Positions 37,483-55,602 of a stretch of DNA of 64,000 nt are shown here, one piece after another. The first letter of the stretch is position 1; each line of letters opens with the position of its first letter. The stretch is from contig JAUUYL010000004.1 in assembly GCA_030590485.1 (NCBI GenBank), positions 7,878 to 71,877 on the forward strand. Reading direction: 5' to 3'. The stretch is from Lentisphaerota bacterium (GTDB lineage Bacteria; Verrucomicrobiota; Kiritimatiellia; UBA8416; JAUUYL01). Both the position numbers and the translations under genes were made by a program. The notes under the pieces were generated by a model. The model had not been told where the DNA came from, searched no databases, and saw nothing but the letters and a program-made list of their open reading frames with translations.

Positions 37483-38895
37483 ATGGGCGGTTTCTTCGGC
37501 GTAACTTCAAAAGACGACTGTGTTAATGATTTATTTTTCGGCACAGACTACCAGTCACATCTGGGCACGCAACGTGGTGGGCTTGCTGTAATCGACGGCG
37601 ACGAATTCACTCGGTTCATTCACGACATCCGCAACGCACAATTTCGTTCAAAGTTTGATGATGACATCAAAAAAATGAACGGCCCATCAGGAATCGGCGT
37701 CATCAGCGATTTCGAAGATCAACCCATTATGGTCAATTCACATCTTGGCCAGTATGCCATCGTCACAGTGGGCGTCATACAAAACGCCGAAGAGCTTGTC
37801 GCAAAGGCTTTCAAGAGAAAACATACACATTTCGCGGAAATGGGCGGCGGCTACGTCAACCCGACAGAAATAGTTTCCACCCTTATAAACGAAGAAAACT
37901 CTTTCGAAGCAGGTCTTGAAAGCGCTCAGGAACAGATCGAGGGCTCATGCTCCATCCTCCTCTTATGCAAAGACGGCATATATGCCGCTCGCGACAGATT
38001 GGGACGTACCCCTATCGTTATTGGCCGAAAAGAGGATTCTTATTGCGCCGCTACGGAAAACTGCTCGTTCCCAAATCTTGATTACGAAATAGAGAAGGAT
38101 CTTGGGCCTGGCGAAATAGTCCTGATGACCTCGCAAGGAATCGAGCAAAAGAAAGCTCCAAACGAAAAAATGCAGATATGCTCCTTCCTTTGGGTTTACT
38201 ACGGATATCCATCATCATCCTATGAAGGCATAAACGTTGAAAACGTCAGATATAGATGTGGAGCCGCACTCGCCAAGAACGACGCTCACACGGTCGACAA
38301 GGTGGCCGGCATACCAGATTCGGGAACAGCACATGCTATCGGATATGCCAACGAAGCAAAAGTTCCATACATGAGACCTTTCGTTAAGTACACACCAACA
38401 TGGCCTCGTAGTTTCATGCCGCAAAATCAGGAAATAAGAAATCTAGTCGCACGCATGAAGCTTATCCCAATCAAGGAATTGATCAAGGGTCACAGCATTG
38501 CATTCTGCGAAGACTCGATTGTACGCGGTACTCAGCTACAGGATATCGTGCAGAGGGTATTCGATTACGGAGCGAAAGAATTTCATATGCGCCCCGCCTG
38601 CCCGCCCCTGGTCTACGGTTGCAAATACCTGAATTTCTCAAGATCTAGATCAATACTGGATCTAGCAACAAGAAAAGCCATGAAGGAAATCGAAGGGACA
38701 GAGTATCCTGACAATCATGCGGAATACGCTGATTTCAATTCAGACAAATATGCGGAGATGATAGAAAGTATCCGCAAGCGCCTGAAACTGTCTTCTCTGC
38801 AATTCCAAAAACTTCCTGACCTTGTTGAGGCTATTGGCCTGCCAAAAGAAAAGCTCTGTACATACTGCTGGGACGGATGCGATGGCTGTAATTAG
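37483..38895 (+). CDS. Amidophosphoribosyltransferase (PurF) paralog lacking the N-terminal catalytic cysteine
   Basis: The Ntn class-II amidotransferase fold aligns with PurF (LFFGTDYQSHLGTQRGGLAVIDG) but begins MGGFFGV instead of MCG. PRPP-binding motif CEDSIVRGTQ. Strong RBS aaggagaacaaaATG. Confidence 0.65.
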   Translation: MGGFFGVTSKDDCVNDLFFGTDYQSHLGTQRGGLAVIDGDEFTRFIHDIRNAQFRSKFDDDIKKMNGPSGIGVISDFEDQPIMVNSHLGQYAIVTVGVIQNAEELVAKAFKRKHTHFAEMGGGYVNPTEIVSTLINEENSFEAGLESAQEQIEGSCSILLLCKDGIYAARDRLGRTPIVIGRKEDSYCAATENCSFPNLDYEIEKDLGPGEIVLMTSQGIEQKKAPNEKMQICSFLWVYYGYPSSSYEGINVENVRYRCGAALAKNDAHTVDKVAGIPDSGTAHAIGYANEAKVPYMRPFVKYTPTWPRSFMPQNQEIRNLVARMKLIPIKELIKGHSIAFCEDSIVRGTQLQDIVQRVFDYGAKEFHMRPACPPLVYGCKYLNFSRSRSILDLATRKAMKEIEGTEYPDNHAEYADFNSDKYAEMIESIRKRLKLSSLQFQKLPDLVEAIGLPKEKLCTYCWDGCDGCN

Positions 38896-38898
38896 ACG

Positions 38899-39753
38899 AT
38901 GAATAGAATTATAGAGACAACTCAGCTTTCGGACGATGTTTTTAAACTCATAGTTGACGCTCCCCTCATCGCGGAGGAGCGCAAACCTGGTCAGTTCATC
39001 ATCCTTCAAATCCATGACGATGGTGAGCGTATTCCGCTTACAATCGCGGATGGCAACAGCAAAAAAGGTACCATCACCCTGATATTCCAGGCTGTTGGCA
39101 GATCCACTCATATGCTCGCAAACTTTAAAGTGGGAGATGAGATTGCTCATCTACTCGGACCGCTCGGGACGCCCACACATATTGAGAAATTCGGACATGT
39201 AGTCTGCGTCGGCGGCGGGATTGGTGTCGCGCCAATGCATCCCATCGCTCAAGGAATGAAAGTGGCAGGAAACAAGGTGACAATCATCATGGGTGCCAGG
39301 AACAAGGAACTGATGGTTCTCGAGGACGAAATGCGTACCATAGCAGATGACCTGATTATCTGCACGGACGACGGCTCGCACGGCCGCAAATGTCTGGTCA
39401 CGGAACCGCTGAAGGAACTCTGCGAAAACGATCCGAAGCCCGATCTGGCTGTTGCCATAGGACCACCTATCATGATGAAGTTCTGCGCCGAGACGACCAG
39501 ACCTTACGAGGTCCACACGCTCGTATCACTAAACACTATAATGATAGACGGAACAGGAATGTGCGGCGGATGCAGAGTCTCTGTTGGCGGAAAAACTAAG
39601 TTCGTATGCGTAGACGGTCCGGAATTCGACGGACACAAAGTGGATTTTGATAACATGATGCTTCGACTCGGTGCTTACAAAAAGCGCGAAGCGGACGATC
39701 ATCACAAATGCCACATAGAGCTTGGAATAGATTGGACTGCGGACAAAGGATAG
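38899..39753 (+). CDS. nfnA: PyrK/NfnA-like FAD/NAD(P)-binding ferredoxin reductase subunit with C-terminal [2Fe-2S]
   Basis: FNR-like fold and C-terminal cluster motif GTGMCGGCRV...C. It is translationally coupled to the downstream GltD-like gene. Confidence 0.65.
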   Translation: MNRIIETTQLSDDVFKLIVDAPLIAEERKPGQFIILQIHDDGERIPLTIADGNSKKGTITLIFQAVGRSTHMLANFKVGDEIAHLLGPLGTPTHIEKFGHVVCVGGGIGVAPMHPIAQGMKVAGNKVTIIMGARNKELMVLEDEMRTIADDLIICTDDGSHGRKCLVTEPLKELCENDPKPDLAVAIGPPIMMKFCAETTRPYEVHTLVSLNTIMIDGTGMCGGCRVSVGGKTKFVCVDGPEFDGHKVDFDNMMLRLGAYKKREADDHHKCHIELGIDWTADKG

Positions 39754-41229
39754 ATGGATTATCACTTAATGAACGACGAAGCAAAGAAACAACTTGCCAA
39801 TATTGATTCACGCGAAGAACCGCTGAAGCCCAAAGACCGCATTGCGATTCCAACGCAGGAAATGCCAACGCAAGACCCGATTGAGCGAGGTAAAGATTTC
39901 ACCGAGGTTGCCACTGGCTACACTGCAGAACAGGCACAACTGGAGTCTATCCGATGCCTGCAATGTAAAACGGCACCATGTATAGCTGGCTGCCCGGTCG
40001 GAATCAACATCCCCGGCTTTCTCAAGGCTGCATCCGAAGGCAATTTCGAAAAATCTGTCCAAATCATAAAAGAAAGCAGTCTCCTTCCCGCAATATGCGG
40101 CAGAGTCTGTCCGCAGGAAACCCAGTGCCAGGAGCCATGCACAGTAGGTAAAGCACTTAAAGACGTCGAGCAGGCTGTCTCCATAGGACGCGTTGAACGA
40201 TATGTAGCTGACCTCGAACGTGACAATGGTATCGTAACCCCTGCCGTGAAATCGAAAACAGGCAAAAAAGTAGCTGTAATAGGAAGCGGTCCAGCGGGAC
40301 TCGTGGTGGCAGCAGACGTCCGACGAGAAGGTCATGACGTAACAATCCTGGAAGCATTCCACAAACCCGGTGGTGTCATGGTTTATGGCATTCCTGAATT
40401 CAGATTACCCAAGGCTATTGTTCAGACAGAAATCGACACCCTCATAGCTATGGGCGTGGAACTTAAAACCGATTTCGTAGTCGGACGCACCCGCAAACTC
40501 AAGGACCTGATCGAAAAAGACGGTTACGATGCTGTCTTCGTCGCAACAGGTGCAGGGTTGCCAAGATTCATGAATATCGAAGGCGAGAATCTTGTCGGAG
40601 TCTTTTCCGCAAATGAATATCTGACACGCGCAAATCTTATGAAAGCATACGACCGTGAAAACGCAGATACACCCATCATACAATCACGGAAGGTTGCTGT
40701 CCTGGGAGGCGGAAATGTTGCCATGGATTCTGCTCGCACCGCATTACGTCTTGGCGCAGAAGAAGTTCATATCGTTTACAGGCGCACGGAAAAAGAAATG
40801 CCCGCGCGAGTCGAAGAAGTTCACCACGCACAAGAGGAAGGCATCGTTTTCCATCTTCTAGAGAACGCAAAAAGCATACTTGGGGACGATCAGGGCCTCG
40901 TGACCGGCATGGAATGTCTGCGTTACGAGCTGGGCGCGCCGGACGAGTCCGGGCGACGCCGCCCCGTTGTTATCGAAGGAAGCGAATTTATTATGGATGT
41001 TGATACAGTAATTGTCGCTATCGGCAACGACTCGAATCCGCTCATCAAGCAGACCACCCCAGAAATCGAATGCAATAAATGGGGGAACATCATTGTCGAC
41101 GACACCGGAAAGACATCCATGGATTGCGTCTACGCAGGTGGCGACATCGTTCTGGGGGCGGCAACTGTAATCCTCGCTATGGGCGAAGGACGCAGAGCCG
41201 CAGCATCGATCAACGCATTGCTTGCGTAA
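39754..41229 (+). CDS. nfnB: GltD-like NADPH-dependent oxidoreductase (NfnB / glutamate synthase small-subunit family)
   Basis: N-terminal 2x[4Fe-4S] CLQCKTAPCIAGCP...CPQETQCQEPC, FAD/NADPH Rossmann motifs VAVIGSGPAGL and VAVLGGGNVAMD. Confidence 0.75.
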   Translation: MDYHLMNDEAKKQLANIDSREEPLKPKDRIAIPTQEMPTQDPIERGKDFTEVATGYTAEQAQLESIRCLQCKTAPCIAGCPVGINIPGFLKAASEGNFEKSVQIIKESSLLPAICGRVCPQETQCQEPCTVGKALKDVEQAVSIGRVERYVADLERDNGIVTPAVKSKTGKKVAVIGSGPAGLVVAADVRREGHDVTILEAFHKPGGVMVYGIPEFRLPKAIVQTEIDTLIAMGVELKTDFVVGRTRKLKDLIEKDGYDAVFVATGAGLPRFMNIEGENLVGVFSANEYLTRANLMKAYDRENADTPIIQSRKVAVLGGGNVAMDSARTALRLGAEEVHIVYRRTEKEMPARVEEVHHAQEEGIVFHLLENAKSILGDDQGLVTGMECLRYELGAPDESGRRRPVVIEGSEFIMDVDTVIVAIGNDSNPLIKQTTPEIECNKWGNIIVDDTGKTSMDCVYAGGDIVLGAATVILAMGEGRRAAASINALLA

Positions 41230-41346
41230 GAACAAACACCATTCCTTGCACTCAGCCATAAGCCATTCTAATCCGAAGGATCGTGCCGTATCAAAAACCT
41301 CTTTTGACACGCGGATCAATAACTACTGCTTTTGTTAGAAGCAGGC

Positions 41347-41718
41347 TTACCTGGCAATATCTTTATCGCCTTCCCACTTATCTTTAAATCTGATGCCTAC
41401 AGCATCTACCTGTGTTAGCGTCCTGGTAAAAAGAATGAAGAACTGTGTGCAATTTTCCACGGTTATCTCTATTAACGCATCCGCCCCGACATTTTCTTTG
41501 GCCTTTTTAATAGCATCTCTTGTTGAGTTACCTTTTGTAACTGGAATAAGGCCTAAAATTGCGAATCGACTGTCCGCAGCCGATGTAGGGCCAATCACAT
41601 TATACGATTTAGCATGTAGCGGTGTATTTGACGCGGCTATACCACCCGGATAAGAAGCGCATCCGGCCAACATAGCACTCATTATGATCACTAATAACAA
41701 ACCAATGTATTTGCTCAT
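41347..41718 (-). CDS. Small lipoprotein (TRL-like family candidate)
   Basis: Signal peptide with lipobox MSKYIGLLLVIIMSAMLAGC. ~100-aa mature domain. Confidence 0.4.
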   Translation of the reverse strand: MSKYIGLLLVIIMSAMLAGCASYPGGIAASNTPLHAKSYNVIGPTSAADSRFAILGLIPVTKGNSTRDAIKKAKENVGADALIEITVENCTQFFILFTRTLTQVDAVGIRFKDKWEGDKDIAR

Positions 41719-41837
41719 AACATATCCTCCTTTATAAGAACTTTAGATAATCAATAAATACTATAACATCTAAAAAATAGCAATTAAGAACTGAAGTGTT
41801 TATTAACTGACAGGAATTTGCCTGCCATGTAGCGTGT

Positions 41838-41938
41838 TTCGCAGGCGGCGACATAGTATTAGGCACCTCAACGGTGATTCTCGCTATGGGCGAAGGCCGC
41901 AGAGCAACAGCCTCGATCAACACATTACTTGCGGAATA
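41838..41938 (+). pseudogene. Remnant 3' fragment of a gltD/nfnB-like gene
   Basis: It translates to FAGGDIVLGTSTVILAMGEGRRATASINTLLAE*, against the real NfnB C-terminus YAGGDIVLGAATVILAMGEGRRAAASINALLA* at 41140-41229. Identity is ~85% at the nucleotide level, and the fragment lacks the upstream body. Confidence 0.55.
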
Positions 41939-42002
41939 GCAAACTGAAATCGTTTTCAGTACAGCCGCCATGTAATGGCGGCTATACTTTTGGACAGCGC
42001 GA

Positions 42003-44120
42003 CTACATCATAAACATCATTTCTGAATACGACGGCAATGGCCGGAGTTCGTCAGAAAGCATGCCTTCAATATTATCAGCGGCTTCGCGCAGCACTAACA
42101 TAGCCTTAAGCTTGTCGGAAGGCTTGCCCTTCTTGATTACAGCTTCAAGCTTGCTTGTGGCTTTCAACAGCTTTTCTGTTTCGGCTACAACCGCAGTGAA
42201 CAGCTTTTTACTCTCAGGTATATTCTTTACACCAACAGCCTTTACCGCGCCTAGGATGTCAGCAAGCTCACCCTGGTACTCTAACACAGCTGGAGCTATC
42301 ATTGTCTTTGCGATTCTGACAGCACATTGAGCTTCGATAGCAATAGTCTCCTCGTAAATCTCGCTGTAAATCTCATAGCGCGCTTCAAGCTCTCTCTTGC
42401 TCAGCACGTTGAATTTCTCAAAAAGCGTTATGGTTTTTTTAGATATTATCTGCTTCAAGGCTTCATCTGTTGTTTTCAGGTTAGGTAGCCCCCTACGTTC
42501 CGCTTCTTTATGCCAGTCTTGCGAATAATTATCGCCCTCAAACAACACTCTTTTGTGCTTCTTAACGATACCTTGCAGAACCTTCTGCAACGCATCGTTA
42601 AACTTTACCTTCTTCGACAACATCCCCTCTACCGCCGTGCAAATATCATCCAGTGCCTCGGTAACAATTGTGTTCAGCACTACGTTTGCGCCAGCGCAAC
42701 TCTGACTGGAGCCCACTGCCCGGAACTCAAACTTGTTTCCTGTAAAAGCAAATGGTGATGTTCTGTTGCGGTCAGTAGCATCGCGAGGCAGGGAAGGAAG
42801 AGATGACACACCGATTTCGATTGTTCCTCCATTCTTAGAGCTTTTAGCCCCACCCTTTTCTACCTGCCGTATCACGTCATGCAGCTGTTCCCCAAGAAAT
42901 ATCGACATAATCGCTGGAGGCGCCTCATTAGCGCCTAGCCTGTGATCATTGCCTGCGGTCGCTACAGACGCACGAAGCAATCCAGCATGAGTATCAACAG
43001 CCTTAATGACCGCACATATTACTGTAAGGAATCGTGCGTTATCATGAGGATTATCTCCAGGCTTGAGCCAATTCTTACCATCCGGGCCATTCACATTCCA
43101 GTTGTTGTGTTTACCGGATCCATTTACGCCCGCGAATGGTTTTTCATGAAGCAGGCAGGCAAAGTTATGTCTCTCGGCTACATCTTCAATAACCTCCATC
43201 ATTAGCATGTTGTGATCTACGGCCAGGTTAAGCTCCTCATATACGGGCGCCAACTCAAATTGCCCCGGACAGACTTCGTTATGCCTGGTCTTCGCCGGCA
43301 CGCCAAGACGCCACATCTCCCTATCGAGCTCACACATGAACGCTACTACCCTGCTCTTTATCACCCCGAAATAATGATCATCCATCTGTTGGTGCTTAGC
43401 AGGAATCTTTCCGAACAAAGTCCGCCCAGTCTGAAGCAGATCGGGCCGCATCTCATACAATTCTCTATCAATGAGGAAATACTCCTGTTCAGCGCCAAGC
43501 GAGGCCGTTGTCTTCCGCCCATTGACTTTGACACCAAACAATTTTGCTAACCGGCAGAACTGCTCTGACAGAGCATCGCCTGAACGCAACAATGGCGTCT
43601 TTTTATCCAAAGCTTCTCCATTGTATCCGCAGAACACAGTTGGTATGCACAGTGTTGCGCCATTTTCACCTTCACGAATGAATGCCGGACTGGTTGGATC
43701 CCACGCTGTATACCCGCGCGCCTCAAAAGTTGCGCGCAAACCGCCTGATGGGAAACTCGACGCATCCGGCTCACCCTGGATCAATTCCTTCCCCGAAAAC
43801 TTATAGACTGCGCCATCATTCCCATCCGGAGTCACAAAGGAGTCATGCTTTTCAGCTGTAGAGCCTGTCAACGGCTGAAACCAGTGTGTGAAATGCGTAG
43901 CGCCCTTCTCCAACGCCCAAGTCTTCATAGCCTCTGCCACGTCATCAGCAATCTCCGGATTTAGGGTTTTCCCTTTGCGGACTGTTGACACTAAAGACTT
44001 GTAAACCGTTGCCGACAGATACTTCCGCATCGTCTTTATGCTGAAAACATTCTCGCCAAAGAATTTAACAATATCATCAGTCTTTTTCTTTTTAGTATTT
44101 CCTGAAGTCTTTCGAGGCAT
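42003..44120 (-). CDS. glnN: Glutamine synthetase type III
   Basis: 705 aa with GS catalytic-domain motifs and the characteristic GSIII N- and C-terminal extensions. Confidence 0.85.
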
Positions 44121-44267: not shown

Positions 44268-44295
44268 TTGACTGAAATATTTATTGCTTTATTAT
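44268..44295 (+). promoter_or_regulatory. Sigma-70-like promoter upstream of the hdrL operon
   Basis: TTGACT-16 nt-TATTAT, ~40 bp upstream of the TTG start, with RBS gcaaggagtgg. Confidence 0.35.
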
Positions 44296-44333: not shown

Positions 44334-47300
44334 TTGGTTGAGAATAGTAAAAATGGTTCGGTACTCATTTTGGGTGCAGGTATCGCTGGAATACAGGCGG
44401 CGCTGGATCTTGCCGACTCCGGCTATAAGGTATACCTGGTCGAATCCAAAACCGCTATCGGCGGTCATATGGCACAGCTTGATAAGACATTCCCCACTAA
44501 CGACTGCGCAATGTGCACAATCTCACCTCGTCTCGTAACCGCTGGCCTGCATAGAAACATTGAGATTATCACAAACGCCGAACTGCAAGAACTCAAGGGT
44601 GAAGCTGGTAATTTCGAAGCAACAATACGTCTCAACCCTAATTTTGTAGATCTCGACAAATGTACAGGCTGCGGTCTCTGTGCAGAGGAATGTCCTATTA
44701 ATATCCCTGACGAATACAACCAGGGACTGAACAACAGAAAAGCCATTTACAAATTATACCCGCAAGCCGTACCAAACAAATTCACTATCAGCAAACTGGG
44801 CGAAGCACCATGCTACGACGCGTGCCCTCTTCACGGAGACCCCAGCGGCTATGTCGCACTGACCGCTGAAGGCCGCTATCAGGAAGCTCTGGATCTTGTC
44901 AGAGAAAAGAACCCCTTCCCCGCTATCTGCGGCAGAATATGTCAACATCCATGCGAAACAGAATGCAGCCGATGCAAAGTCGATGAGCCCGTTTCCATCG
45001 CATACATAAAACGATTTCTGGCTGACTGGGAAATGGGTCATGGCGAAGAGAAAACACCCGCCGCTGAAATAATTGAAAATGGAAAGAAAGTCGCCATCAT
45101 CGGGTCAGGTCCCGCAGGACTTACCGCCGCACGCGAGCTTAGGAAAATGGGCTATTCTCCCGCAATTTACGAGTCTCGCGCAAAAGCCGGCGGCATGATG
45201 ACTCTCGGCATCCCCTCGTACCGCCTACCGCACGAGATTATAGAAAAGGAAATAAAAGACATTACCGATCTGGGTGTAACCCTTAAAATCAATTCACCGA
45301 TTAATTCCGAAGAAGACATCGAAGCTCTCTTTAAGGATGGATGCGAAGCCGTCTTCCTCAGTGTAGGCTCCCACCAAAGCAGAAGCATGGATATTGAGGG
45401 CGAAGACCTTGAAAACGTTACGGACGGTGTTACCTTTCTGCGCGAACTAAGCCTTGGATCAATAACTTCAGTCAAAGAACGAGTTATTGTTGTAGGAGGA
45501 GGCAACGTAGCACTCGACTGCGCGCGCTCCGCCCTGCGTCTTGGTGCCAAGGCTGTAAATATCGTTTGCCTGGAAGCTTACGAGAACATGCCTGCGCACC
45601 GCAACGAGATTGACTGGGCGGAAGAAGAAGGCATCGTCGTCAACGCCGCAAAGGCGACACAAAGCATTACAGATAAAAACAACGCCTTTGCCGGGTTGGC
45701 ATTGATGGATGTAAAGAAAATGGCGTTCGTAGAAGGAAAACTCGAGCTAGAGACTGAGCCGGGTTCAGAATCAACAATTGAAGCCGACCAGATGATTGTA
45801 GCCATCGGCCAGGCACCTGACCTCTACTTCCTCTCCGATGACAGCAAAATCAACACCACCCCACGGGGTACTCTGGATGTGGACAGCAAAAGCTTTATGA
45901 CATCCTGGAAAGGCGTATTCTCAGGAGGCGATGTAGTGCGTGGAGCGGCAAGCGTTATCGAGGCCGTTGCAGACGGCAGAAATGCAGCCATGTCGATAGA
46001 CGCCTATATCAAGGGCGAAGAATTTACTCCAGACGCAAGCAATCAGCCGATTGTAACGCTATCAGACGAAGAAATTAGAGCAAAACTGAAAAGTAAGGAA
46101 ATACAAAAGACGCCTCGTCACATCATGCCAGAACGCCCAGTCGAAGAACGTATTTCAAACTTTAGCGAAGTAGATCTCGGGTTGAGCGAGGAAGCCGCAA
46201 AGAAGGAAGCCGAACGCTGTCTCTATTGCTCTATCTGCTCCAACTGCCGAAGATGCGAAACAGTATGCGAAGCTAACGCGCTCATCTATGATGACGTTCC
46301 TAAGAACAGAACAATCAATCCGGGCGCAGTTATCCTCGCCCCTGGTTTCGAACTGTTTGATTCGGGCAAAAAAGGAGAATTTGGCTACAAACGATTTCCA
46401 AATGTCATTTCCGCTCTGGATTATGAACGCATACTCAGTGCGTCCGGCCCTACACTTGGTCATATACAGAGAATCTCCGACAGCAAGACGCCTCGGAACA
46501 TAGCCTTCATTCAGTGTGTGGGATCAAGAGACGAAGACAACCCATATTGTTCATCCGTTTGCTGCACCTTTGCAATAAAACAATCCATCATTACAAGAGA
46601 GCATGCGAAGGACACACAATGCACCATTTTCGCGATGGACATCCGTGCCTTTGGTAAGGGCTTTGATGAGTATTTCGAGCGTGCAAAAAACAACTACGGC
46701 GTCAAAGTTGTATACACACGCCCATCGTCGATTAAACAGGATTTCAAAACCCACAATCTTCAGCTGCAATTCACCGAAGATGGTCAAGACTGGATCGAAC
46801 AGGAATTCGATCTGGTCGTTCTCTCAGCTGGCTTATGCCAGAATGACAAGGCCAAAGAAATCGCAAATGTCTGTGAAATCGACCTGAACGACTACTCGTT
46901 CGCCAATTCACCCGTCTTTTCGCCAACATCGACCAACCGCGAAGGTGTATATCTCGCCGGAACATTTGAGGAGCCGAAAGACATTCCGGAATCAGTGACC
47001 CACGCAAGTGCAGCCGCAGCGAGGGCAATGGAACTGCTTGCCGATGTCAGAGGCACTGAAGTAGAAGAAAAAGTTTATCCAAAAGAAAGAGACGTATCAC
47101 AGGAAGAACAACGCATAGGCGTCTTTGTATGTCACTGTGGATCAAACATCGAGGGATTCATCAGTTGCAAAGAAGTAGCCGAGTACGCTCAAAGCCTCAA
47201 AAACGTAGTATACACAGACCATCTTCTCTACAGTTGCTCTCCAGACGGACTGCAAACCATTAAAGATATGGTGATAGAGCATAACCTCAACCGTGTGGTT

Positions 47301-48794
47301 GTAGCATCCTGCACACCGCGCACACACGAGCCACTATTTCAAGAAAACATCAGAGAAGCAGGACTAAACCCCTACCTCTTCGAGATGGCCAACATACGCG
47401 ACCAATGCACATGGGTACATGCAGATATGGGCGAAGCGACCCAAGAAAAGGCCAATGACCTAGTGCGAATGGCCGTCGGCAGAGCACGAACGATTGAATC
47501 GCTATCTTCAAAGACGTATGTACCAAAGCGCAGCGCGCTGGTCGTCGGAGGAGGAATCTCAGGCATGAGCTCCGCACTCTCCGTAGCCAACCAGGGCCAC
47601 GAAGTATACCTGGTCGAAAAATCGGACAAACTTGGCGGCAGTGCATTGAAGATCAAGAAAACCATAGACGGCAGCAACCCAGCCGAACTAGTACAAAGTC
47701 TCGAGGAAAGCGTGCTTGAACATGACAAGATCACGGTAATGATGAACGCTGAAGTCGCAGAAACCAGCGGTTTCATCGGCGATTTCCACACTCAGATCAA
47801 AAGCAAAGCAAAAGACGTATCCTTTGAACATGGCGCAACAATTATTGCGACAGGCGCGGAGGAGCTCAAGCCTTCCGAATATCTTTTCGGAGAGAACGAG
47901 CATATTGTAACTCAACAGACTTTCGAAGAAACGATCGAAAACAGCCCCGAAACCATTAAGAGCATTAAAGAAATTGTGATGATCCAATGTGTCGGCTCTA
48001 GAGAGCCTGATAGAATGGTCTGCAGCAGAGTGTGCTGTACCGAGGCCATAAAAAACGCCATTGCTGTAAAAAATGCTAATCCTGAAGCATCTGTTTCCAT
48101 TCTTTATCGAGACATACGCACATATGGGTTCCTTGAGAAATACTACACCGAAGCACGCGAGATGGGCATCTTGTTTTTTAGGTACGATCTGGAAAACAAG
48201 CCTGAGGTGACTTCCGGCAATGACGGTAAACTCAGAGTACGGACAAAGGATCTCAATTCCGGCCTCGAAATAAGTTTCGACCCTGACTGCCTGGTTTTAA
48301 GCGCAGGAATGGTGACCCCTGAGGGGACGCAAAAGGTAGGAACAGCCTTCAAAATCCCATTAAACCTCGAAGGCTTTTTCCAAGAGGCCCACATGAAACT
48401 GCGTCCTGTAGACTTTGCCTCTGACGGCATATTCCTTTGCGGCACCTGCCACAGCCCTAAGTTCATCAGAGAAAGCATTATACAGGCGCAAGGTGCGGCA
48501 GCTAGAGCGATTGGCATACTTTCAAAACCAGAAATGGAAATAAGCTGCATCATTTCAAAGGTTGACGAGGACAAGTGCGTTGCCTGCCTTACCTGCGTAA
48601 GGACATGTCCATACGATGTCCCAAAGATAAATAAGGATGGTATTGCCGAGATTGAACCTGCGATGTGCCATGGATGCGGTATCTGCGCTGCCGAATGCCC
48701 GGCAAAAGCCATAAGCATGATGCATTACAAGGATAGACAGATTATTTCCAAGACCCAGGCCCTGTACAACGAGAAAGGCGAGCTGCAAAAATAA
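44334..48794 (+). CDS. hdrL: Giant HdrA-like flavoprotein with an inserted GltD-like NAD(P)H-binding module and a second HdrA-like module (HdrL-type), 1486 aa
   Basis: HdrA N-terminus VLILGAGIAGIQAALDLADSGYKVYLVE...CTGCGLCAEECP. A GltD-like insert follows (PFPAICGRICQHPCETEC; VAIIGSGPAGLTAARE; VIVVGGGNVALDCARSA). HdrA continues (FIQCVGSRDEDNPYCSSVCC). A second module follows (ALVVGGGISGMSSAL...IQCVGSREPDRMVCSRVCC) and a C-terminal 2x[4Fe-4S] CVACLTCVRTCP...CHGCGICAAECP. It starts at TTG. Confidence 0.75.
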   Translation: MVENSKNGSVLILGAGIAGIQAALDLADSGYKVYLVESKTAIGGHMAQLDKTFPTNDCAMCTISPRLVTAGLHRNIEIITNAELQELKGEAGNFEATIRLNPNFVDLDKCTGCGLCAEECPINIPDEYNQGLNNRKAIYKLYPQAVPNKFTISKLGEAPCYDACPLHGDPSGYVALTAEGRYQEALDLVREKNPFPAICGRICQHPCETECSRCKVDEPVSIAYIKRFLADWEMGHGEEKTPAAEIIENGKKVAIIGSGPAGLTAARELRKMGYSPAIYESRAKAGGMMTLGIPSYRLPHEIIEKEIKDITDLGVTLKINSPINSEEDIEALFKDGCEAVFLSVGSHQSRSMDIEGEDLENVTDGVTFLRELSLGSITSVKERVIVVGGGNVALDCARSALRLGAKAVNIVCLEAYENMPAHRNEIDWAEEEGIVVNAAKATQSITDKNNAFAGLALMDVKKMAFVEGKLELETEPGSESTIEADQMIVAIGQAPDLYFLSDDSKINTTPRGTLDVDSKSFMTSWKGVFSGGDVVRGAASVIEAVADGRNAAMSIDAYIKGEEFTPDASNQPIVTLSDEEIRAKLKSKEIQKTPRHIMPERPVEERISNFSEVDLGLSEEAAKKEAERCLYCSICSNCRRCETVCEANALIYDDVPKNRTINPGAVILAPGFELFDSGKKGEFGYKRFPNVISALDYERILSASGPTLGHIQRISDSKTPRNIAFIQCVGSRDEDNPYCSSVCCTFAIKQSIITREHAKDTQCTIFAMDIRAFGKGFDEYFERAKNNYGVKVVYTRPSSIKQDFKTHNLQLQFTEDGQDWIEQEFDLVVLSAGLCQNDKAKEIANVCEIDLNDYSFANSPVFSPTSTNREGVYLAGTFEEPKDIPESVTHASAAAARAMELLADVRGTEVEEKVYPKERDVSQEEQRIGVFVCHCGSNIEGFISCKEVAEYAQSLKNVVYTDHLLYSCSPDGLQTIKDMVIEHNLNRVVVASCTPRTHEPLFQENIREAGLNPYLFEMANIRDQCTWVHADMGEATQEKANDLVRMAVGRARTIESLSSKTYVPKRSALVVGGGISGMSSALSVANQGHEVYLVEKSDKLGGSALKIKKTIDGSNPAELVQSLEESVLEHDKITVMMNAEVAETSGFIGDFHTQIKSKAKDVSFEHGATIIATGAEELKPSEYLFGENEHIVTQQTFEETIENSPETIKSIKEIVMIQCVGSREPDRMVCSRVCCTEAIKNAIAVKNANPEASVSILYRDIRTYGFLEKYYTEAREMGILFFRYDLENKPEVTSGNDGKLRVRTKDLNSGLEISFDPDCLVLSAGMVTPEGTQKVGTAFKIPLNLEGFFQEAHMKLRPVDFASDGIFLCGTCHSPKFIRESIIQAQGAAARAIGILSKPEMEISCIISKVDEDKCVACLTCVRTCPYDVPKINKDGIAEIEPAMCHGCGICAAECPAKAISMMHYKDRQIISKTQALYNEKGELQK

Positions 48795-49240
48795 TGAATA
48801 ACTTTGAACCGAAAATAACTGCGTTTTGCTGCACCTTCTGCGCGTTCAGTGCGGCGGACCTTGCGGGATCAATGCGATTGCAGTACCCACCGAACGTAAG
48901 GATTGTAAAACTGCCATGCACAGGCAAAGTAGATGTCCTTTACATCCTCAAGGCCTTTGAAGACGGCGCAGATGGTGTGTTTGTTGCAGGTTGCCTCGAG
49001 GGCGAGTGTCATTACCTTGAGGGTAATTTCCGAGCAAGAAAACGGGTCGAATATGCGAAAATGCTTCTTGAGGAAGTTGGGATCGAAGGTGAGCGCGTCG
49101 AAATGTACAACCTATCCTCGGCTATGGGTGCCCGGTTCGCTGAAATCGTTGAGGAGATGACGGCAAAAATCAAGGAACTTGGACCGAGAGGAAATGGCTA
49201 TAGGTCAGAGGAAGAATGTGAAGAGGGAAAACGTGACTGA
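48794..49240 (+). CDS. mvhD: MvhD-like [2Fe-2S] electron-transfer protein
   Basis: KITAFCCTFCAFSAADLAG...VKLPCTGKVD...FVAGCLEGECHY is the MvhD signature. Confidence 0.8.
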   Translation: MNNFEPKITAFCCTFCAFSAADLAGSMRLQYPPNVRIVKLPCTGKVDVLYILKAFEDGADGVFVAGCLEGECHYLEGNFRARKRVEYAKMLLEEVGIEGERVEMYNLSSAMGARFAEIVEEMTAKIKELGPRGNGYRSEEECEEGKRD

Positions 49241-49288
49241 TGGGCTTAGGGGGAAGAGACTTGAAGCATAGATACTTGTGGATTTAAG

Positions 49289-49843
49289 ATGAGAATTGAA
49301 GAGAACAACGTAAATATAGACAGTTCCTTCGCGCTGGAAGTGCAGAAGCGAAGCGGAGAGAATGTCTTTTTGTGTTACCAATGCAGAAAATGTGCTTCTG
49401 GTTGTCCGCTAAGAGAAATGATGGACAGCAGTCCCACCGAATTTATGCGCTTTGTTCAGCTTGGCATGAAAGATAAGGCAATGACAGACAGTACAGTTTG
49501 GCGTTGCACATCCTGCCAGACCTGCACTACGCGCTGTCCGCAAGGTATCGACATAGCACATGTCATCGACACAGTTAAGATGATGGCACAGGACGAGAGA
49601 ATCAAGGTAGACAGCAAGAATGTAAAAGCTTTTAACGTCATATGGATGAATATGCTCAAACATATGGGCAGGATTTACGAACTCGGACTTGTCGCCCTTC
49701 TTAACATGGCCATGAAACAACCGCTCAAGGGCGCTGAACTGGCCGTCGAAATGGTTAAGAAAGGTAAGCTGAAGTTCATACCAACGATTAAACGTTCTGC
49801 ATCGATGCGAAGAATGTTTAAAAGAGCTAAGGGGTTAAAATAA
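49289..49843 (+). CDS. hdrC: Heterodisulfide reductase subunit C-like (2x[4Fe-4S])
   Basis: CYQCRKCASGCP and CTSCQTCTTRCP. Confidence 0.8.
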   Translation: MRIEENNVNIDSSFALEVQKRSGENVFLCYQCRKCASGCPLREMMDSSPTEFMRFVQLGMKDKAMTDSTVWRCTSCQTCTTRCPQGIDIAHVIDTVKMMAQDERIKVDSKNVKAFNVIWMNMLKHMGRIYELGLVALLNMAMKQPLKGAELAVEMVKKGKLKFIPTIKRSASMRRMFKRAKGLK

Positions 49844-50703
49844 TGAAAGTATCATATTATCCGGGTTGCTCACTGCATTCAACAGCAATAGAATACGATA
49901 TGTCTACCAGAAAAGTCCTCGAGGCACTTGGTGTTGAATATGTTGAGGTGAAAGACTGGATATGCTGCGGGTCAACACCGGCGCATCAAGCTGATGAACT
50001 GATGTCGGTGGCTCTACCAGTCAAAAACCTGGCAATAATGGCTGAGAACGATAATCTTACTGATATGTGCGTACCATGTGCGTCCTGCTATTCACGCCTG
50101 AGAGTTGCGCAGGAAAAGATGAAAAACCCCGAAACACGGAAGAAGGTCGAAGATGTCATAGAGGCACCCTACCCCGAAAACGTAAATGTCATGCATGCTC
50201 TCGACCTTATAATCGAGAAAGTTGGCATCCCCGCTATCAAAGAAAAGATTATCAGCAAGCTGAACGGCATGAAGGTTGTCTGCTATTATGGATGCCTGAT
50301 GACTCGCCCTCCAAAAGCTACGGGCAAGAAGGAGTGCGAGAACCCGATGGAGATGGAAGAGCTAATGGAAGAGCTTGGTGCAAAGCCCCTGGACTGGAAT
50401 ATGAAAACGTTCTGCTGCGGAGCGGCATCCGCATTGACCCAGACGGAAATAGTTCTCGATCTCACCAGAGAAATCCTGGATGACGCTGTTAGCGTAGGCG
50501 CAGAAGCCATTGTCGTAGGATGCCCCCTCTGTCACGCCAACACCGACGGTCGCCAGAAGGAGATCAACGCTAAATATAAAACAGACTTCGATATACCCGT
50601 ATTTTATTTTACCGAACTGCTCGGGCTCTGCCTCGGCATCGACCCTAAAGAACTTGGCATAGACAAACACCTGACCGAGGCCATGGATTTGATTAAGAAA
50701 TAA
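49843..50703 (+). CDS. hdrB: Heterodisulfide reductase subunit B-like (two CCG domains)
   Basis: Cys-rich CCG motifs WICCGSTPA and FCCGAAS plus CPLCHAN. Confidence 0.85.
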   Translation: MKVSYYPGCSLHSTAIEYDMSTRKVLEALGVEYVEVKDWICCGSTPAHQADELMSVALPVKNLAIMAENDNLTDMCVPCASCYSRLRVAQEKMKNPETRKKVEDVIEAPYPENVNVMHALDLIIEKVGIPAIKEKIISKLNGMKVVCYYGCLMTRPPKATGKKECENPMEMEELMEELGAKPLDWNMKTFCCGAASALTQTEIVLDLTREILDDAVSVGAEAIVVGCPLCHANTDGRQKEINAKYKTDFDIPVFYFTELLGLCLGIDPKELGIDKHLTEAMDLIKK

Positions 50704-50773
50704 CGGAGAATAAACACAATGAAGAAATATTATACGCTTCACGTTTCACGTTTCACGGGGCAAAGGGGATCTC

Positions 50774-51442
50774 ATGATCGTAGGTGACAGAAAACCATTA
50801 GAAGAAATCCTTGAATCGATTAAGGACTTCAAGAAGATACTGCTACTTGGATGCGGCGGATGCGTTACTATCTGCTTTTCCGGCGGCGAAAAGGCTGCAG
50901 GCCTGCTTGCGTCTCAGATATCCATTGCACGAAAAGATGCGGGCAATCCGATAGAAATCGACGAAGCAACTCCTACACGAGTCTGCGAGCATGAATTCAT
51001 CGATGAGCTGAAGGATAAAATTGATTCGGTAGATGCTGTACTTTCCTTATCTTGCGGTGTCGGAGTACAAACGCTAGCCGAACAATACGAAGACAAGATC
51101 ATCATCCCCGCGCTTAACACTACGTTTATGGGTTATCCTGTTGAGCATGCTGTATGGGAAGAAAGATGTGCCGGATGCGGTGACTGCGTTCTTGGATGGA
51201 CTGGTGGACTTTGCCCAATTTCCAGATGCGCAAAGAAACTCCTGAACGGCCCATGCGGCGGGTCGGTAGACGGCGTATGCGAAGTCGATTCAGAGAAGGA
51301 ATGCATATGGCACTCGATTTATGATCGTCTAAAGAGAATTGGCAAACTCGAGAACCTTGAAAAGGTTAGAGATCCTAAAGACTGGCGAACAAGCACAAAC
51401 GCGGGCCAGAGGAAATCTGAATTTAAGGAAGCACAACTATGA
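50774..51442 (+). CDS. metV: MetV-like Cys-rich subunit of methylene-THF reductase (MTHFR C-terminal-domain family)
   Basis: ~220-aa Cys-rich protein (CGGCVTIC, CAGCGDC, CPISRC, CGGSVDGVC). It overlaps the metF start by 4 nt. Confidence 0.6.
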   Translation: MIVGDRKPLEEILESIKDFKKILLLGCGGCVTICFSGGEKAAGLLASQISIARKDAGNPIEIDEATPTRVCEHEFIDELKDKIDSVDAVLSLSCGVGVQTLAEQYEDKIIIPALNTTFMGYPVEHAVWEERCAGCGDCVLGWTGGLCPISRCAKKLLNGPCGGSVDGVCEVDSEKECIWHSIYDRLKRIGKLENLEKVRDPKDWRTSTNAGQRKSEFKEAQL

Positions 51443-52353
51443 AATCTGACAGCAAGCTGGAAAAAGTATTAAGCGAGGGTAAGTTTGGTGTCACATGTGA
51501 GCTTGGGCCACCCCAGCACGCAGACCCGGATAATATAAGCAAGAAAGCGGAGCACTTAAAAGGCAACGCTGATGCTGTTAATATTACAGATAATCAGACT
51601 GCAATTGTAAGAATGTCCAGCATTGCGGCATCAAAACTTGCCATTGATGCAGGACTGGAACCGGTGGCGCAGATGGTTTGTAGAGATAGAAACCGCATTG
51701 CTATGCAAAGTGACATTCTGGGCGCTGCCGCGCTGGGAATAAAGAACATCCTTCTGCTTTCAGGTGACCACCAGACTTTTGGCAACCATCCAGAGGCAAG
51801 CAATGTCTACGATTTGGACTCCATCAACCTAATTCAAATGGTAAAGAACATGAGGGACGAAAAGATATTCCAGTCAGGAGACCCGATTAAAGAACATGAA
51901 CCACGAATGTTTATCGGCGCTGTAGAAAATCCATTCGCAGACCCCTTCGAGTTCAGAGTCGCACGTCTAGCCAAGAAGGCCAATGCCGGTGCAGACTTCA
52001 TCCAGACCCAGTGCATCTTTGATATGAATAGATTCAAAGAGTGGATGAAGATGGTTGTAGATCGCGGAATTCACGAAAGACTCTATATTCTGGCAGGAAT
52101 CACACCTGTACGGTCTCACAAAGCACTTGTTTACATGAACAAGAACGTTGCGGGGATTACGGTTCCAGAAGAACTCATCAAACGGATGGAAGACGCTGAC
52201 GAACCGAAGGAAGAAGGCGTTAAGGTAGCCATCGAGCAGATTCAGGAAATCCAGGCAATTGAAGGCGTGGCAGGATTGCATTTAATGCCCATCGGCTGGG
52301 AATCCATCACATCTGTTATCATGGAAAAGACAGGACTCCTGCCAAGACCATAG
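51439..52353 (+). CDS. metF: 5,10-methylenetetrahydrofolate reductase
   Basis: MetF TIM-barrel family: GKFGVTCELGPP...NITDN...LSGDH. Confidence 0.85.
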   Translation: MKSDSKLEKVLSEGKFGVTCELGPPQHADPDNISKKAEHLKGNADAVNITDNQTAIVRMSSIAASKLAIDAGLEPVAQMVCRDRNRIAMQSDILGAAALGIKNILLLSGDHQTFGNHPEASNVYDLDSINLIQMVKNMRDEKIFQSGDPIKEHEPRMFIGAVENPFADPFEFRVARLAKKANAGADFIQTQCIFDMNRFKEWMKMVVDRGIHERLYILAGITPVRSHKALVYMNKNVAGITVPEELIKRMEDADEPKEEGVKVAIEQIQEIQAIEGVAGLHLMPIGWESITSVIMEKTGLLPRP

Positions 52354-52465
52354 TAACGGACGCTGGACCCCGCCTTTGGCGTGGCAGGCAGTGGACGGCG
52401 GACAGGCGTATAGAGGGTAGAACGTACATCTTGACTCGTGAGATGAGTTTGCCTATTATTTCTGC

Positions 52466-53242
52466 ATGAAAAAACACATCTTAGCCTTTGCATTACTCAC
52501 CCTTGCTTTCGGATGCGGTAAACAGGTGGAAGTTCCCGAAGCATCATCCGTAATGGACCAGATAGACAGGATGGCTGCATTGGAAGCCCGCATCAAGGAG
52601 CTCGAGTCCACCGTAAAAACCCTACGCATCGAACAGCTTCATGCAGAACCTAATGCTGCGCATAAAGCCATAGCCATCTCAACTGACGACAACAAGACGA
52701 CGGAACTATCATTTAAGGCTTTAGAACAGATGGTTTCAGTGGCCGTAGAACAAAGAATTGGAACCCCGCAGCAAATCGAATCTATATTTGCTGAGACAGT
52801 AGAGGAACAGATGACCTCTTATGAAGTCCGCAAAGCACAGGAAGAGGTCCTGGAAAAAGAGACGAAGCAGGAAGAAGCAAAGGAACGTCGAGCCGAATGG
52901 GAAGAACGCCGCAAAGTCGAGAGGGAGAAGCAGGAGGCAAGCCGATTCGAAACCTATACAACTGCACTGAATATTAATGAAGAACAGTATCAAACATTGA
53001 GAGTCCTCGAGGACGCAGCATGGAAGACCACATGGGAGACCATGAGCAAGATGAGGAAAGATGGAGGATACACCCCAAAGAATTACAGCGAAGCTATAAC
53101 GCACATCAAAACCCAACATACTGAGTCCGTTAAAGAGATTCTGGACGAGAACCAATTTCAGACTTACAAGGAACAGTACGTGGATCCCATGAGCCAACAA
53201 GGCGGGTTCCGAGGGTTCGGCGGAAGCCGATACCACAGATAA
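52466..53242 (+). CDS. Hypothetical lipoprotein with coiled-coil and charged E/K/R-rich region
   Basis: Signal and lipobox-like MKKHILAFALLTLAFGC, then charged repeats (EEAKERRAEWEERRKVEREKQE). Confidence 0.4.
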   Translation: MKKHILAFALLTLAFGCGKQVEVPEASSVMDQIDRMAALEARIKELESTVKTLRIEQLHAEPNAAHKAIAISTDDNKTTELSFKALEQMVSVAVEQRIGTPQQIESIFAETVEEQMTSYEVRKAQEEVLEKETKQEEAKERRAEWEERRKVEREKQEASRFETYTTALNINEEQYQTLRVLEDAAWKTTWETMSKMRKDGGYTPKNYSEAITHIKTQHTESVKEILDENQFQTYKEQYVDPMSQQGGFRGFGGSRYHR

Positions 53243-55177: not shown

Positions 55178-55224
55178 AGTTGACAAATGACATCTATCGT
55201 GGTATCTCATTCAACCTTAATCAT

Positions 55225-55300
55225 GGGGGTGTAGCTCAGTTGGTAGAGTACTTGAATGGCATTCAAGGAGTCGGGGGTTCGAATCCCCCTACCTCCACCA
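55225..55300 (+). tRNA. tRNA-Ala (anticodon GGC)
   Basis: It folds as a manual cloverleaf: acceptor GGGGGTG/TACCTCC with G3:U70, anticodon loop ATGGCAT, T-arm GGGGGTTCGAATCCCCC, encoded CCA. Confidence 0.85.
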
Positions 55301-55332
55301 AGAACACAAGTCCTGCGAAGGATTCTTCCAGC

Positions 55333-55602
55333 AAGCTTTTCTTCACATACATCATTCAAAGCGCAACCACAGGCCAATTTTATGTCGGTTCATGCTCAAA
55401 TATCCTCAAAAGGTTTGATAACCATCAATCAGGCTACTGTAAAGCAACAAGAGGTCGAGGGCCATGGTGGATGCCCTATTATGAAATTTACACATCACGT
55501 TCAGAGGCAATGAAGCGTGAATACGAAATCAAAAGAAAAAAAAGCAGTAAGCACATTAAAAGAATAATTTATGATGCATACCCGTTTATTGAACTCTATT
55601 AA
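55333..55602 (+). CDS. GIY-YIG nuclease-family protein (YhbQ-like) with no canonical start codon
   Basis: FFTYIIQSATTGQFYVGSCSNILKRFDNHQSG...R...EYEIK is the GIY-YIG motif. No ATG/GTG/TTG lies between the tRNA and the motif. The ORF is open in-frame back through the tRNA to TTG at 55180. Confidence 0.55.
   Translation, partial: KLFFTYIIQSATTGQFYVGSCSNILKRFDNHQSGYCKATRGRGPWWMPYYEIYTSRSEAMKREYEIKRKKSSKHIKRIIYDAYPFIELY

Follow-up and report, generated by a model that had tools for sequence, protein, structure and literature searches.

A tandem HdrA protein with an NfnL-like insert in a putative Moorella-type methylene-tetrahydrofolate reductase operon of a Lentisphaerota bacterium

For acetogens, acetate oxidisers, and sulfate reducers with Hdr proteins, the energy coupling of methylene-tetrahydrofolate (methylene-THF) reductase has been under discussion since 2014, and the debate continued in 2026. 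The closest described system is the MetFV-HdrABC-MvhD complex of Moorella thermoacetica (Mock et al. 2014), which is termed 'Type IV' in PMC13040438. Its six proteins co-purify as one complex, NADH is oxidised on an HdrA that holds two flavin adenine dinucleotides (FAD), and methylene-THF is reduced with reduced viologen; these two reactions are not coupled, and ferredoxin and the other tested carriers are not reduced. Because the NADH and methylene-THF reactions are uncoupled and ferredoxin is not reduced, a third partner is missing, and the debate turns on this partner. A proposal of 2026 for the Moorella-type enzyme is the confurcation of NADH and menaquinol onto methylene-THF. Here, we analysed a 64,000-nucleotide stretch of DNA from a Lentisphaerota bacterium (assembly GCA_030590485.1, contig JAUUYL010000004.1), referred to as the window, and describe a six-gene operon, hdrL-mvhD-hdrC-hdrB-metV-metF, which probably encodes a version of this reductase with an additional nucleotide port inserted into a large, HdrL-type HdrA.

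The elements of this arrangement are known separately, namely HdrL since 2009, the Moorella-type reductase since 2014, NfnB-like insertions in archaeal HdrA since 2022 (Chadwick et al. 2022), and fused HdrAs. HdrL was introduced as an HdrA/GltD-type fusion encoded beside dsr and fdh genes (Strittmatter et al. 2009). 'Moorella-type' hdrA-mvhD-metVF clusters in Chloroflexi and other groups have also been reported, without domain analysis. In the literature searched, we found no account in which the HdrA linked to metVF is recognised as an HdrL that carries an NfnL port of Bfu type, nor any report that forms with and without the insert alternate. An earlier reading of the same DNA (the original prediction) had stated that the HdrLs of sulfate reducers and syntrophs are biochemically uncharacterised, and the literature agrees. 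The arrangement is less exceptional than that reading implied: the architecture is common in nature, poorly annotated, mechanistically informative, not unique to the window, and present in long-published genomes of cultured bacteria.

The hdrL operon and the two HdrA modules of HdrL

The operon and its promoter-like site comprise the following features (lengths in amino acids, aa):

44268..44295, forward strand: promoter-like TTGACT-16-TATTAT, well placed 39 nucleotides 5' of the hdrL start
44334-48794, forward strand: hdrL, 1486 aa, tandem HdrA with NfnL-like insert; TTG start, TAA stop
48794-49240, forward strand: mvhD, 148 aa, FlpD family; start overlaps the hdrL stop
49289-49843, forward strand: hdrC, 184 aa, two CxxCxxCxxxCP motifs
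49843-50703, forward strand: hdrB, 286 aa, two complete CCG motifs
50774-51442, forward strand: metV, 222 aa, PF12225/DUF5981, 13 Cys
51439-52353, forward strand: metF, 304 aa, PF02219 methylene-THF reductase (MTHFR); 4-nucleotide overlap with metV

An AGGAG lies 9-13 nucleotides 5' of the TTG start of hdrL. The junctions read ATAATG at hdrL/mvhD and hdrC/hdrB and ATGA at metV/metF, and the two intergenic gaps are 48 and 70 nucleotides; the gene order with overlapping or closely spaced starts is as originally predicted. The single open reading frame (ORF) of 1486 aa at 44334, with its three-part architecture, is likewise intact and had been placed exactly. The deposited protein P0001 (1486 aa) is 100% identical to HdrL of the window, and a protein search gave hundreds of full-length homologs. 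Almost all of the best 120 listed are 1470-1520 aa long with 98-100% query coverage, and the closest named relatives, at 60-65% identity, come from metagenome-assembled genomes (MAGs) of Planctomycetota (Sedimentisphaerales/Phycisphaerae). Since an identical protein is deposited and homologs cover the full length, the ORF is genuine, and a frameshift or assembly artefact is ruled out. The ORF, the domain order, and the gene set of the operon are real.

Promoter-like sites in the region numbered 14 against 11 expected, a count that is not above chance. A terminator scan, whose counts were also not above chance, found no terminator-like site 3' of metF on the forward strand. Upstream of hdrL, no riboswitch or structured RNA was matched in Rfam at E<=1, and folding of the leader is not better than that of shuffled copies (z = 0.91).

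Domains of the window proteins were called by Pfam and NCBIfam scans, and residues were mapped onto the methanogen HdrA structure 5ODC. The scans returned the domain order of the original prediction: an HdrA-type FAD start and a Fer4 motif (residues 1-154), the GltD-like segment, a further HdrA match (632-904), a second FAD site with GGGISG at 1072-1077, and a terminal 2x[4Fe-4S] domain (1409-1462). An HdrA core and a GltD-like NAD(P)H domain thus stand in one chain with mvhD next to it, and the name HdrL is appropriate. The parts of the protein are as follows:

44334..44795, forward strand: module 1, part a (residues 1-154), thioredoxin-reductase-like FAD-domain start with GAGIAG, aligned with HdrA 146-290; DKTFPTNDCAMC motif with the 'Cys197' equivalent (C58/C61); C110-C120, the first CxxCxxCxxxCP of the inserted ferredoxin domain
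44796..46229, forward strand: NfnL-like insert (residues ~155-632), placed by domain scans, structure alignments, and the insert-less protein P0208
46230..47048, forward strand: module 1, part b (residues 633-905), second ferredoxin motif C635-C645 and remaining flavin domain; CVGSRD...CSSVCC cluster (C728/739/743/744)
47103..47513, forward strand: module 2, N-terminal HdrA domain (residues 924-1060), cluster C933/C935/C968/C993, aligned with HdrA 2-155
47514..48533, forward strand: module 2, flavin domain (residues 1061-1400), GGGISG; CVGSRE...CSRVCC (C1219/1230/1234/1235)
48534..48791, forward strand: C-terminal 2x[4Fe-4S] ferredoxin domain (residues 1401-1486), aligned with HdrA 515-651

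Four distinct alignments connect HdrL with HdrA of 5ODC (10-154 with 146-290, 635-848 with 293-509, 924-1077 with 2-155, and 1346-1479 with 515-651), and because these matches are separate, HdrL is read as two HdrA modules that are incomplete in a complementary manner. Module 1 has neither the N-terminal HdrA domain nor a C-terminal ferredoxin domain and holds the sole inserted-ferredoxin domain and the sole 'Cys197' equivalent of the two. In module 2, both the N-terminal cluster domain and the terminal 2x[4Fe-4S] domain are present and the inserted ferredoxin domain is missing; none of 78 aligned homologs has a Cys in the module 2 loop equivalent to Cys197. The dinucleotide motif and the CVGSR(D/E)...CSxVCC cluster are kept in both modules, and the cluster-binding Cys are essentially invariant across phyla in the same alignment. 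In the methanogen HdrA dimer, a protomer's N-terminal cluster is completed by Cys197 of its partner, and MvhD is contacted by the C-terminal 2x[4Fe-4S] domain. Chadwick et al. (2022) described the same complementarity of Cys197 and N-terminal domain, both in fused HdrAs and in the Moorella HdrA.

Judged by these alignments, HdrL resembles an HdrA dimer that is covalently joined and asymmetric, with one entry via MvhD and one former 'ferredoxin exit'. Three dinucleotide-binding flavin sites and one NAD(H) site are present, and the predicted cofactors are 3 FAD and 9 [4Fe-4S]. The general Pfam scan, in which no transmembrane predictor was used, gave no membrane-protein match in HdrL. Assignment to the canonical methanogen HdrA, a single four-domain protein of ~650 aa, was considered and rejected, as the NCBIfam HdrA models score below cutoff (934.5 vs 1100, 699.7 vs 1300, and 694.8 vs 1400) and no MvhAG or FdhAB gene was found nearby among the window ORFs scanned.

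The partner proteins are complete in their ligand motifs. MvhD matches FlpD/MvhD (E 1e-50) with its Cys set present, both CxxCxxCxxxCP motifs of HdrC are intact, and the two full CCG motifs of HdrB provide ten Cys, the ligand set of two non-cubane clusters. MetV matches PF12225 (E 7e-38), with no Pfam match in its N-terminal half, and MetF matches PF02219 (E 2e-41). A PDB search gave no close solved relative of MetF, and neither a MetFV-Hdr complex nor an HdrL-type chain was found in the PDB copy searched.

An optional NfnL-like insert

The insert is ~470 aa long and lies inside the ferredoxin domain of module 1. Its limits are set by the natural insert-less relative P0208, in which residues 153-624 are cleanly absent. 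Pfam finds Fer4_20 at 157-236 and Pyr_redox_2 at 251-548 (E 2.7e-51), the score on NCBIfam PRK12771 is 543 bits (cutoff 516), and residues ~155-632 match GltD/NfnB-type proteins along the full length, with GSGPAG (257-262) as the FAD site and GGGNVA (388-393) as the NAD(P)H site. The NAD(P)H:FAD module that the original prediction had placed in the middle of the protein is thus present, although its GltD/NfnB-like label can be narrowed.

In the PDB, the insert matches best to NfnL-like domains, those of 9bov_A, 8oh5_C, and 9n5u_A (E 1e-93 to 1e-98), and the NfnSL-type chains 4ylf_B and 5vj7_A match more weakly (about E 1e-77). The N-terminal segment of NfnB ('R..NF.EV...EA.RCL.C') sits at the C-terminal end of the insert, where residues 593-632 align with NfnB residues 6-47. 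The predicted clusters are ligated by C164/C203/C207/K226 and by C160/C211/C629/C632. K226 stands at a position that is Glu in NfnSL proteins and is Lys in 71 of 78 homologs, and the first ligand set aligns with Cys108/Cys147/Cys151/Lys170 of Caldicellulosiruptor NfnA. In that protein, the FAD beside the Lys-ligated cluster ends the electron chain, an arrangement that was judged incompatible with bifurcation and that makes it a nucleotide port. By these alignments, the insert is a permuted, Lys-ligated NfnL-like domain of Bfu-type NfnA/StnC, with its FAD as the likely input port, and not a generic GltD. Membership in NfnSL was rejected on the Lys/Glu ligand swap, the permutation, and the lack of an NfnS gene in the operon.

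With respect to the nucleotide, CLE at 412-414 of the window HdrL replaces the YRR of all five aligned NADPH-oxidising Nfn-type structures. The YRR position corresponds to the HRR of thioredoxin reductase, which binds the 2'-phosphate, and a beta-2 strand ending in an acidic residue is a classical signature of NADH binding. Because CLE, which is acidic at the beta-2 end, replaces YRR, the insert is predicted to use NADH; the nicotinamide module of the original prediction is retained, and its general NAD(P)H link becomes more specific. CLE is near-invariant in an alignment of 12 sequences, and the alignment of 78 HdrL homologs (loci L001-L084) reveals it to be one of two states of a bimodal 2'-phosphate site (~48 YRR, ~24 CLE). 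Both states occur beside metV. This distribution suggests that nucleotide preference was switched repeatedly within the HdrL family.

A scan of species-representative genomes listed at least 80 full-length hdrL loci, which fall in many phyla and include Bathyarchaeia and Hodarchaeota MAGs. For locus statistics, 43 loci with a full-length hdrL gene and at least 3 kb of flank on each side were used. The mvhD gene lies <=1 kb from hdrL in 41 of these; metV lies <=6 kb away in 22, hdrB in 21, and both metV and hdrB in 12. In most metV-linked loci, metV follows immediately 3' of mvhD, and 10 of the 22 have no hdrCB within 6 kb. In a neighbour-joining tree, metV linkage recurs in several clades, among them the Planctomycetota clade of the window, Anaerolineae, and Desulfobacterales, and is missing from one Acidobacteriota clade and one Smithella/Syntrophales clade. 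The linkage of hdrL to metVF, for which the original prediction had proposed a homolog search, is strongly conserved and not universal.

The identical six-gene order was found in two further MAGs, both of Planctomycetota. One of them has a gene for formate-THF ligase directly upstream, and the other is flanked by genes for MttB-family and pterin-binding methyltransferases. A Syntrophaceae MAG has hdrC-hdrB-hdrL-mvhD-metV-metF followed by CODH/ACS genes (carbon monoxide dehydrogenase/acetyl-CoA synthase), and the order in a Chloroflexota MAG is hdrL-mvhD-metV-hdrCB...metF. In the Syntrophaceae MAG GCA_013388675 (L001, 1-24530), three metV-metF pairs and a [NiFe] hydrogenase immediately surround hdrC-hdrB-hdrL-mvhD, and CODH/ACS genes come next.

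Cultured sulfate reducers provide a direct comparison. The position X in the Wood-Ljungdahl cluster slot acsE...hdrCB-X-mvhD-metV-metF is held by a 1001-aa insert-less tandem HdrA in Desulfofundulus kuznetsovii and by a 1473-aa HdrL in Desulfoscipio gibsoniae. Because forms with and without the insert share one syntenic slot, the NADH module is an optional plug-in on the Moorella-type MetFV-HdrABC-MvhD reductase. The insert-less tandem HdrAs of ~1000 aa are a large family, and both forms coexist in some genomes. D. gibsoniae (CP003273, L086) carries two successive hdrL-mvhD-metV-metF units at 9001-22422, with HdrLs of 1473 and 1495 aa; a few kb upstream, this cluster also encodes a tandem HdrA of 1008 aa that has no insert.

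Other variants were seen. A third length class of ~1340-1368 aa (P0179, P0181, P0184, P0191, P0207, and P0211), found for example in Sporotomaculum syntrophicum, keeps Fer4_20 and aligns over only ~66% of the HdrL query. Among archaea, a Bathyarchaeia MAG (L084) and a Hodarchaeota MAG (L076) have HdrL-type genes with mvhD adjacent. The Bathyarchaeia locus also has hdrCB and a weak [NiFe]-hydrogenase large-subunit-like match, and no metVF. Its HdrL-type gene yielded a continuous ORF of only 1008 aa.

The HdrL family is thus large and spread over many phyla, including Planctomycetota, Chloroflexota, Acidobacteriota, and some archaea. It is masked by annotations such as 'FAD-dependent oxidoreductase', 'NAD(P)-binding protein', 'glutamate synthase', or 'selenate reductase YgfK'. 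Because HdrL is hidden in this way, the electron carrier of this step is probably assigned wrongly when C1 metabolism is reconstructed for uncultured anaerobes.

Proposed wiring of the putative reductase

We consider it probable that the operon encodes the insert-plus (HdrL-type) version of the Moorella-type methylene-THF reductase, with the NfnL-like unit as its port. Module 1 would contribute the 'Cys197' equivalent as the missing Cys ligand, one further flavin, and the sole inserted-ferredoxin domain, and the NfnL-like unit would be spliced into the ferredoxin domain that in methanogens is the exit to free ferredoxin. This unit is most likely a simple, non-bifurcating port that exchanges hydride with NADH at its FAD. 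Single electrons would then pass via the two [4Fe-4S] clusters of the insert and the inserted-ferredoxin clusters to the N-domain cluster of HdrL. Bifurcation or confurcation would occur at an HdrA flavin, a site that would link NAD+/NADH, methylene-/methyl-THF at MetF (via MetV), and a third couple. A third redox partner is still expected because HdrB keeps its ten active-site Cys and MvhD is retained; the original suggestion of a 'self-contained' reductase is not supported.

As to the wiring, we tentatively favour a docking of MetVF on MvhD, in the place that is taken by hydrogenase or formate dehydrogenase (Fdh) in methanogens, where MvhD connects exchangeable donor modules with HdrA. The mid-potential hub would then be the folate couple (-200 mV). 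The branch that formerly led to ferredoxin would be permanently connected to NAD(H), and the partner of HdrCB would have a higher potential and be of thiol/disulfide type or linked to quinone. This preference is drawn from the adjacency of mvhD and metV, the metV-linked loci without nearby hdrCB, the intact HdrB, and the biochemistry of the Moorella enzyme. The 2026 proposal of NADH and menaquinol confurcation has the same thermodynamic shape and counts in its favour. A wider generalisation, which we hold to be possible but doubtful, is that the redox roles in Hdr-type methylene-THF reductases are reversed relative to the textbook, with folate at mid potential, NAD(H) at low potential, and a higher-potential partner at HdrB. 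If true, it would account for the failure of NADH alone to drive methylene-THF reduction by the Moorella enzyme, and HdrL-MvhD would be a general 'NADH-terminated' bifurcation core that takes MetVF, Fdh, or Dsr modules.

A number of points weigh against the reading of the operon or against this wiring. No HdrL has been purified, and the mechanism is argued from sequence. Co-transcription and complex formation of the six gene products are read from gene order. MetV is not significantly similar to either HdrC or MvhD and so offers no clue to its docking site. The NADH preference is taken from a single motif, at which the wider family is split between YRR and CLE. Redox potentials do not follow from homology to the methanogen wiring, and the own flavin and full HA4-type cluster of module 1 are left unexplained by docking on MvhD. 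By analogy, the NfnL-like domain of Bfu NfnABC, which feeds a substrate that is then bifurcated, would favour NADH as the mid-potential donor. Finally, the most likely insert-minus state of the Moorella HdrA is judged from the description of 2 FAD and '2 fused HdrA domains' and from synteny. The paper that uses this wording handles NfnB insertions as a separate feature, and Moorella was neither among the at least 80 loci listed in the genome scan nor in two Firmicute-seeded protein searches. The original prediction that acetogen complexes have no NAD(P)H dehydrogenase domain fails in that the Moorella HdrA oxidises NADH, and holds in that this HdrA most likely has no separate NfnL-like module.

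Sequence alone cannot choose between docking of MetVF on MvhD and its rivals, of which the Mock/Thauer-type wiring survives best, though we regard it as rather unlikely. Here, NADH enters through the NfnL-like port as the mid-potential donor that is bifurcated at the HdrA flavin. The downhill branch runs from HdrCB or an HA4-type cluster through MetV-MetF to methylene-THF, and the uphill branch runs through the C-terminal ferredoxin domain and MvhD to a low-potential ferredoxin or flavodoxin. It is the original Moorella proposal (2 NADH + CH2-THF + oxidised ferredoxin, about -5 kJ/mol), and the homologous domain of Bfu NfnABC is likewise the entry of the bifurcated substrate. It also fits the reverse need of acetate oxidisers, in which methyl-THF oxidation to NADH is driven by reduced ferredoxin, and the abundance of the HdrL family in Desulfobacterota, Desulfotomaculia, and Chloroflexota. 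However, the Moorella complex reduced neither ferredoxin nor any tested carrier. Moreover, the insert sits at the end of the methanogen ferredoxin-exit branch and not at the donor entry, a bridge to MetV is lacking in 10 of 22 metV-linked loci, where hdrCB does not lie nearby, and the intact HdrB active site would be left without a substrate.

A linear, non-bifurcating NADH:methylene-THF oxidoreductase with Hdr as a long wire, similar to MetFV-RnfC2 of Acetobacterium woodii, is improbable in our view. [quoted passage not shown] Yet a tandem HdrA of ~1000 aa, MvhD, and an HdrB with ten non-cubane Cys, all conserved across phyla, would be a costly wire, and the insert-less Moorella enzyme has an NADH site but cannot run the linear reaction. 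Hardly any credence can be given to two neighbouring but separate enzymes, an NADH-linked disulfide or other reductase made of HdrL-MvhD-HdrCB, of the kind suggested for HdrL linked to DsrC in sulfate reducers, and an independent ferredoxin-dependent MetVF: about half of the hdrL loci have no metVF, HdrL was first described beside dsr/fdh and as HdrABC/HdrL in Syntrophobacter fumaroxidans, and MetFV alone is a working ferredoxin-dependent enzyme in Clostridium ljungdahlii, but the tight hdrL-mvhD-metV-metF order is found repeatedly across many phyla, D. gibsoniae has two copies of this unit, and the homologous Moorella proteins co-purify.

For the insert-plus reductase that we favour, one HdrA branch would be fixed to a nicotinamide nucleotide, which limits the partners elsewhere and makes the mechanism testable. 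The insert-plus D. gibsoniae and the insert-minus D. kuznetsovii, with their HdrAs in one operon slot, offer a ready-made comparison in cultured relatives. An HdrL-type reductase could thereby help to settle how this class of methylene-THF reductases conserves energy.

Genomic setting and comparison with known systems

Among the ORFs scanned in the 64-kb window, no genes for CODH/ACS and no fhs or folD were found, and the neighbours of the operon are nitrogen-assimilation genes; its assignment to the Wood-Ljungdahl pathway of this organism, as originally predicted, is not supported. A role in C1-THF metabolism is likely by analogy, because related Planctomycetota loci put the operon beside fhs or methyl-transfer genes; the direction may be reductive, oxidative, or anabolic.

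The nitrogen-assimilation island (28776-44120) contains two Amt genes, a GAF/sigma-54 activator, an NrpR-type regulator, glutamate dehydrogenase, and type III glutamine synthetase (GS-III), the last on the opposite strand and divergent from hdrL. NrpR-type regulators belong to a family known chiefly from archaea. At 38899-41229 on the forward strand, no more than 3 kb from hdrL, the island has a separate pair of NfnSL type or resembling archaeal glutamate synthase, which consists of an NfnS/PyrK-like protein (DHODB_Fe-S_bind and NAD_binding_1) followed by an NfnL/GltA-type protein (TIGR01316, 610 bits, above cutoff). Upstream of this pair are genes for a GATase_7 protein and glutamate dehydrogenase (37483-38895 and 35898-37292). 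Directly after metF, at 52466-53242 on the forward strand, lies a 258-aa ORF without Pfam or NCBIfam match. Its N-terminus resembles a signal peptide with a lipobox-like LAFGC, its sequence is E/K-rich, and a promoter-like site of its own lies at 52431-52459; the ORF was not found beside hdrL at any other locus examined.

Further features of the window include a 566-aa fusion of ribose-5-phosphate isomerase B (RpiB) and serine hydroxymethyltransferase (21157-22860, reverse strand) and a tRNA at 55225-55297 on the forward strand (Rfam, 65 bits). The tRNA is inside the mechanical ORF 55180-55602, whose C-terminal part matches GIY-YIG, and the real GIY-YIG gene probably begins after it. At 58100-61886 on the reverse strand, a 986-aa protein with cytochrome c3/c7-type multihaem matches is encoded beside an ApbE flavin-transferase gene.

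Compared with the methanogen HdrABC-MvhAGD complex (5ODC), the window encodes all four HdrA domains with their ligands, as well as MvhD, HdrC, and an HdrB with both CCG motifs. In contrast, the domains are spread over two fused modules that form a single asymmetric path and not a symmetric dimer, the ferredoxin exit is taken by the NADH module, and no hydrogenase or Fdh gene was found near hdrL among the window ORFs scanned. MetFV-RnfC2 of A. woodii shares MetFV with an added NADH-oxidising subunit, but its RnfC-like NADH module is unrelated to NfnL, Hdr and MvhD are absent, and the complex is non-bifurcating.

Structurally, the insert stands nearest to the NfnL-like domains of Bfu-type NfnA/StnC (Csac NfnABC, 9bov; and 8oh5, the Stn complex of Sporomusa ovata). 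Common to both are the N-terminal segment in permuted position, the first cluster with Cys3-Lys ligation, and an FAD port that ends an FeS chain. The NfnA/StnC domains are, however, fused to an Fdh/NuoG-like domain, work with NuoF/NuoE-like BfuB/C partners, and use NADPH (YRR), whereas the domain of the window lies inside HdrA and has the CLE motif. No BfuB/BfuC (NuoE/NuoF-like) genes occur among the window ORFs scanned. HdrA9-11 of ANME-1 (Chadwick et al. 2022) differ in being archaeal, in not being clustered with metF, and in being described apart from the fused-HdrA types; as partner couples, CoM-SH/CoB-SH and NADPH have been proposed for them.

The HdrLs of Desulfobacterium autotrophicum HRM2 and S. 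fumaroxidans are likewise large, soluble fusions of HdrA and glutamate-synthase type with an NADH-binding domain and mvhD next to the gene. Their loci have dsrABC, fdh, or a separate HdrABC as partners, and a role in electron supply to sulfite/DsrC reduction has been proposed, whereas the partner in the window is MetVF. In addition, two of the three D. autotrophicum HdrLs are selenoproteins, while the window HdrL has Cys at all relevant positions.

The closest match to the operon as a whole is the Moorella reductase. The same six gene products are clustered (metF PF02219, metV PF12225, hdrABC, and mvhD), NADH is the substrate of HdrA, and MetF/MetV provide the folate site. Compared by description, the Moorella HdrA is also a fused tandem HdrA with complementary loss of Cys197 and the N-terminal domain. 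The insert-minus sequences that were compared directly are P0208 and the 1001-aa protein of D. kuznetsovii, the Moorella protein being known by description. The gene orders differ (hdrCBA-mvhD-metVF in Moorella, hdrL-mvhD-hdrC-hdrB-metV-metF in the window), and while the Moorella HdrA is described with 2 FAD and '2 fused HdrA domains', the HdrL of the window has an extra module of ~470 aa with FAD, NAD(H), and 2x[4Fe-4S] sites.

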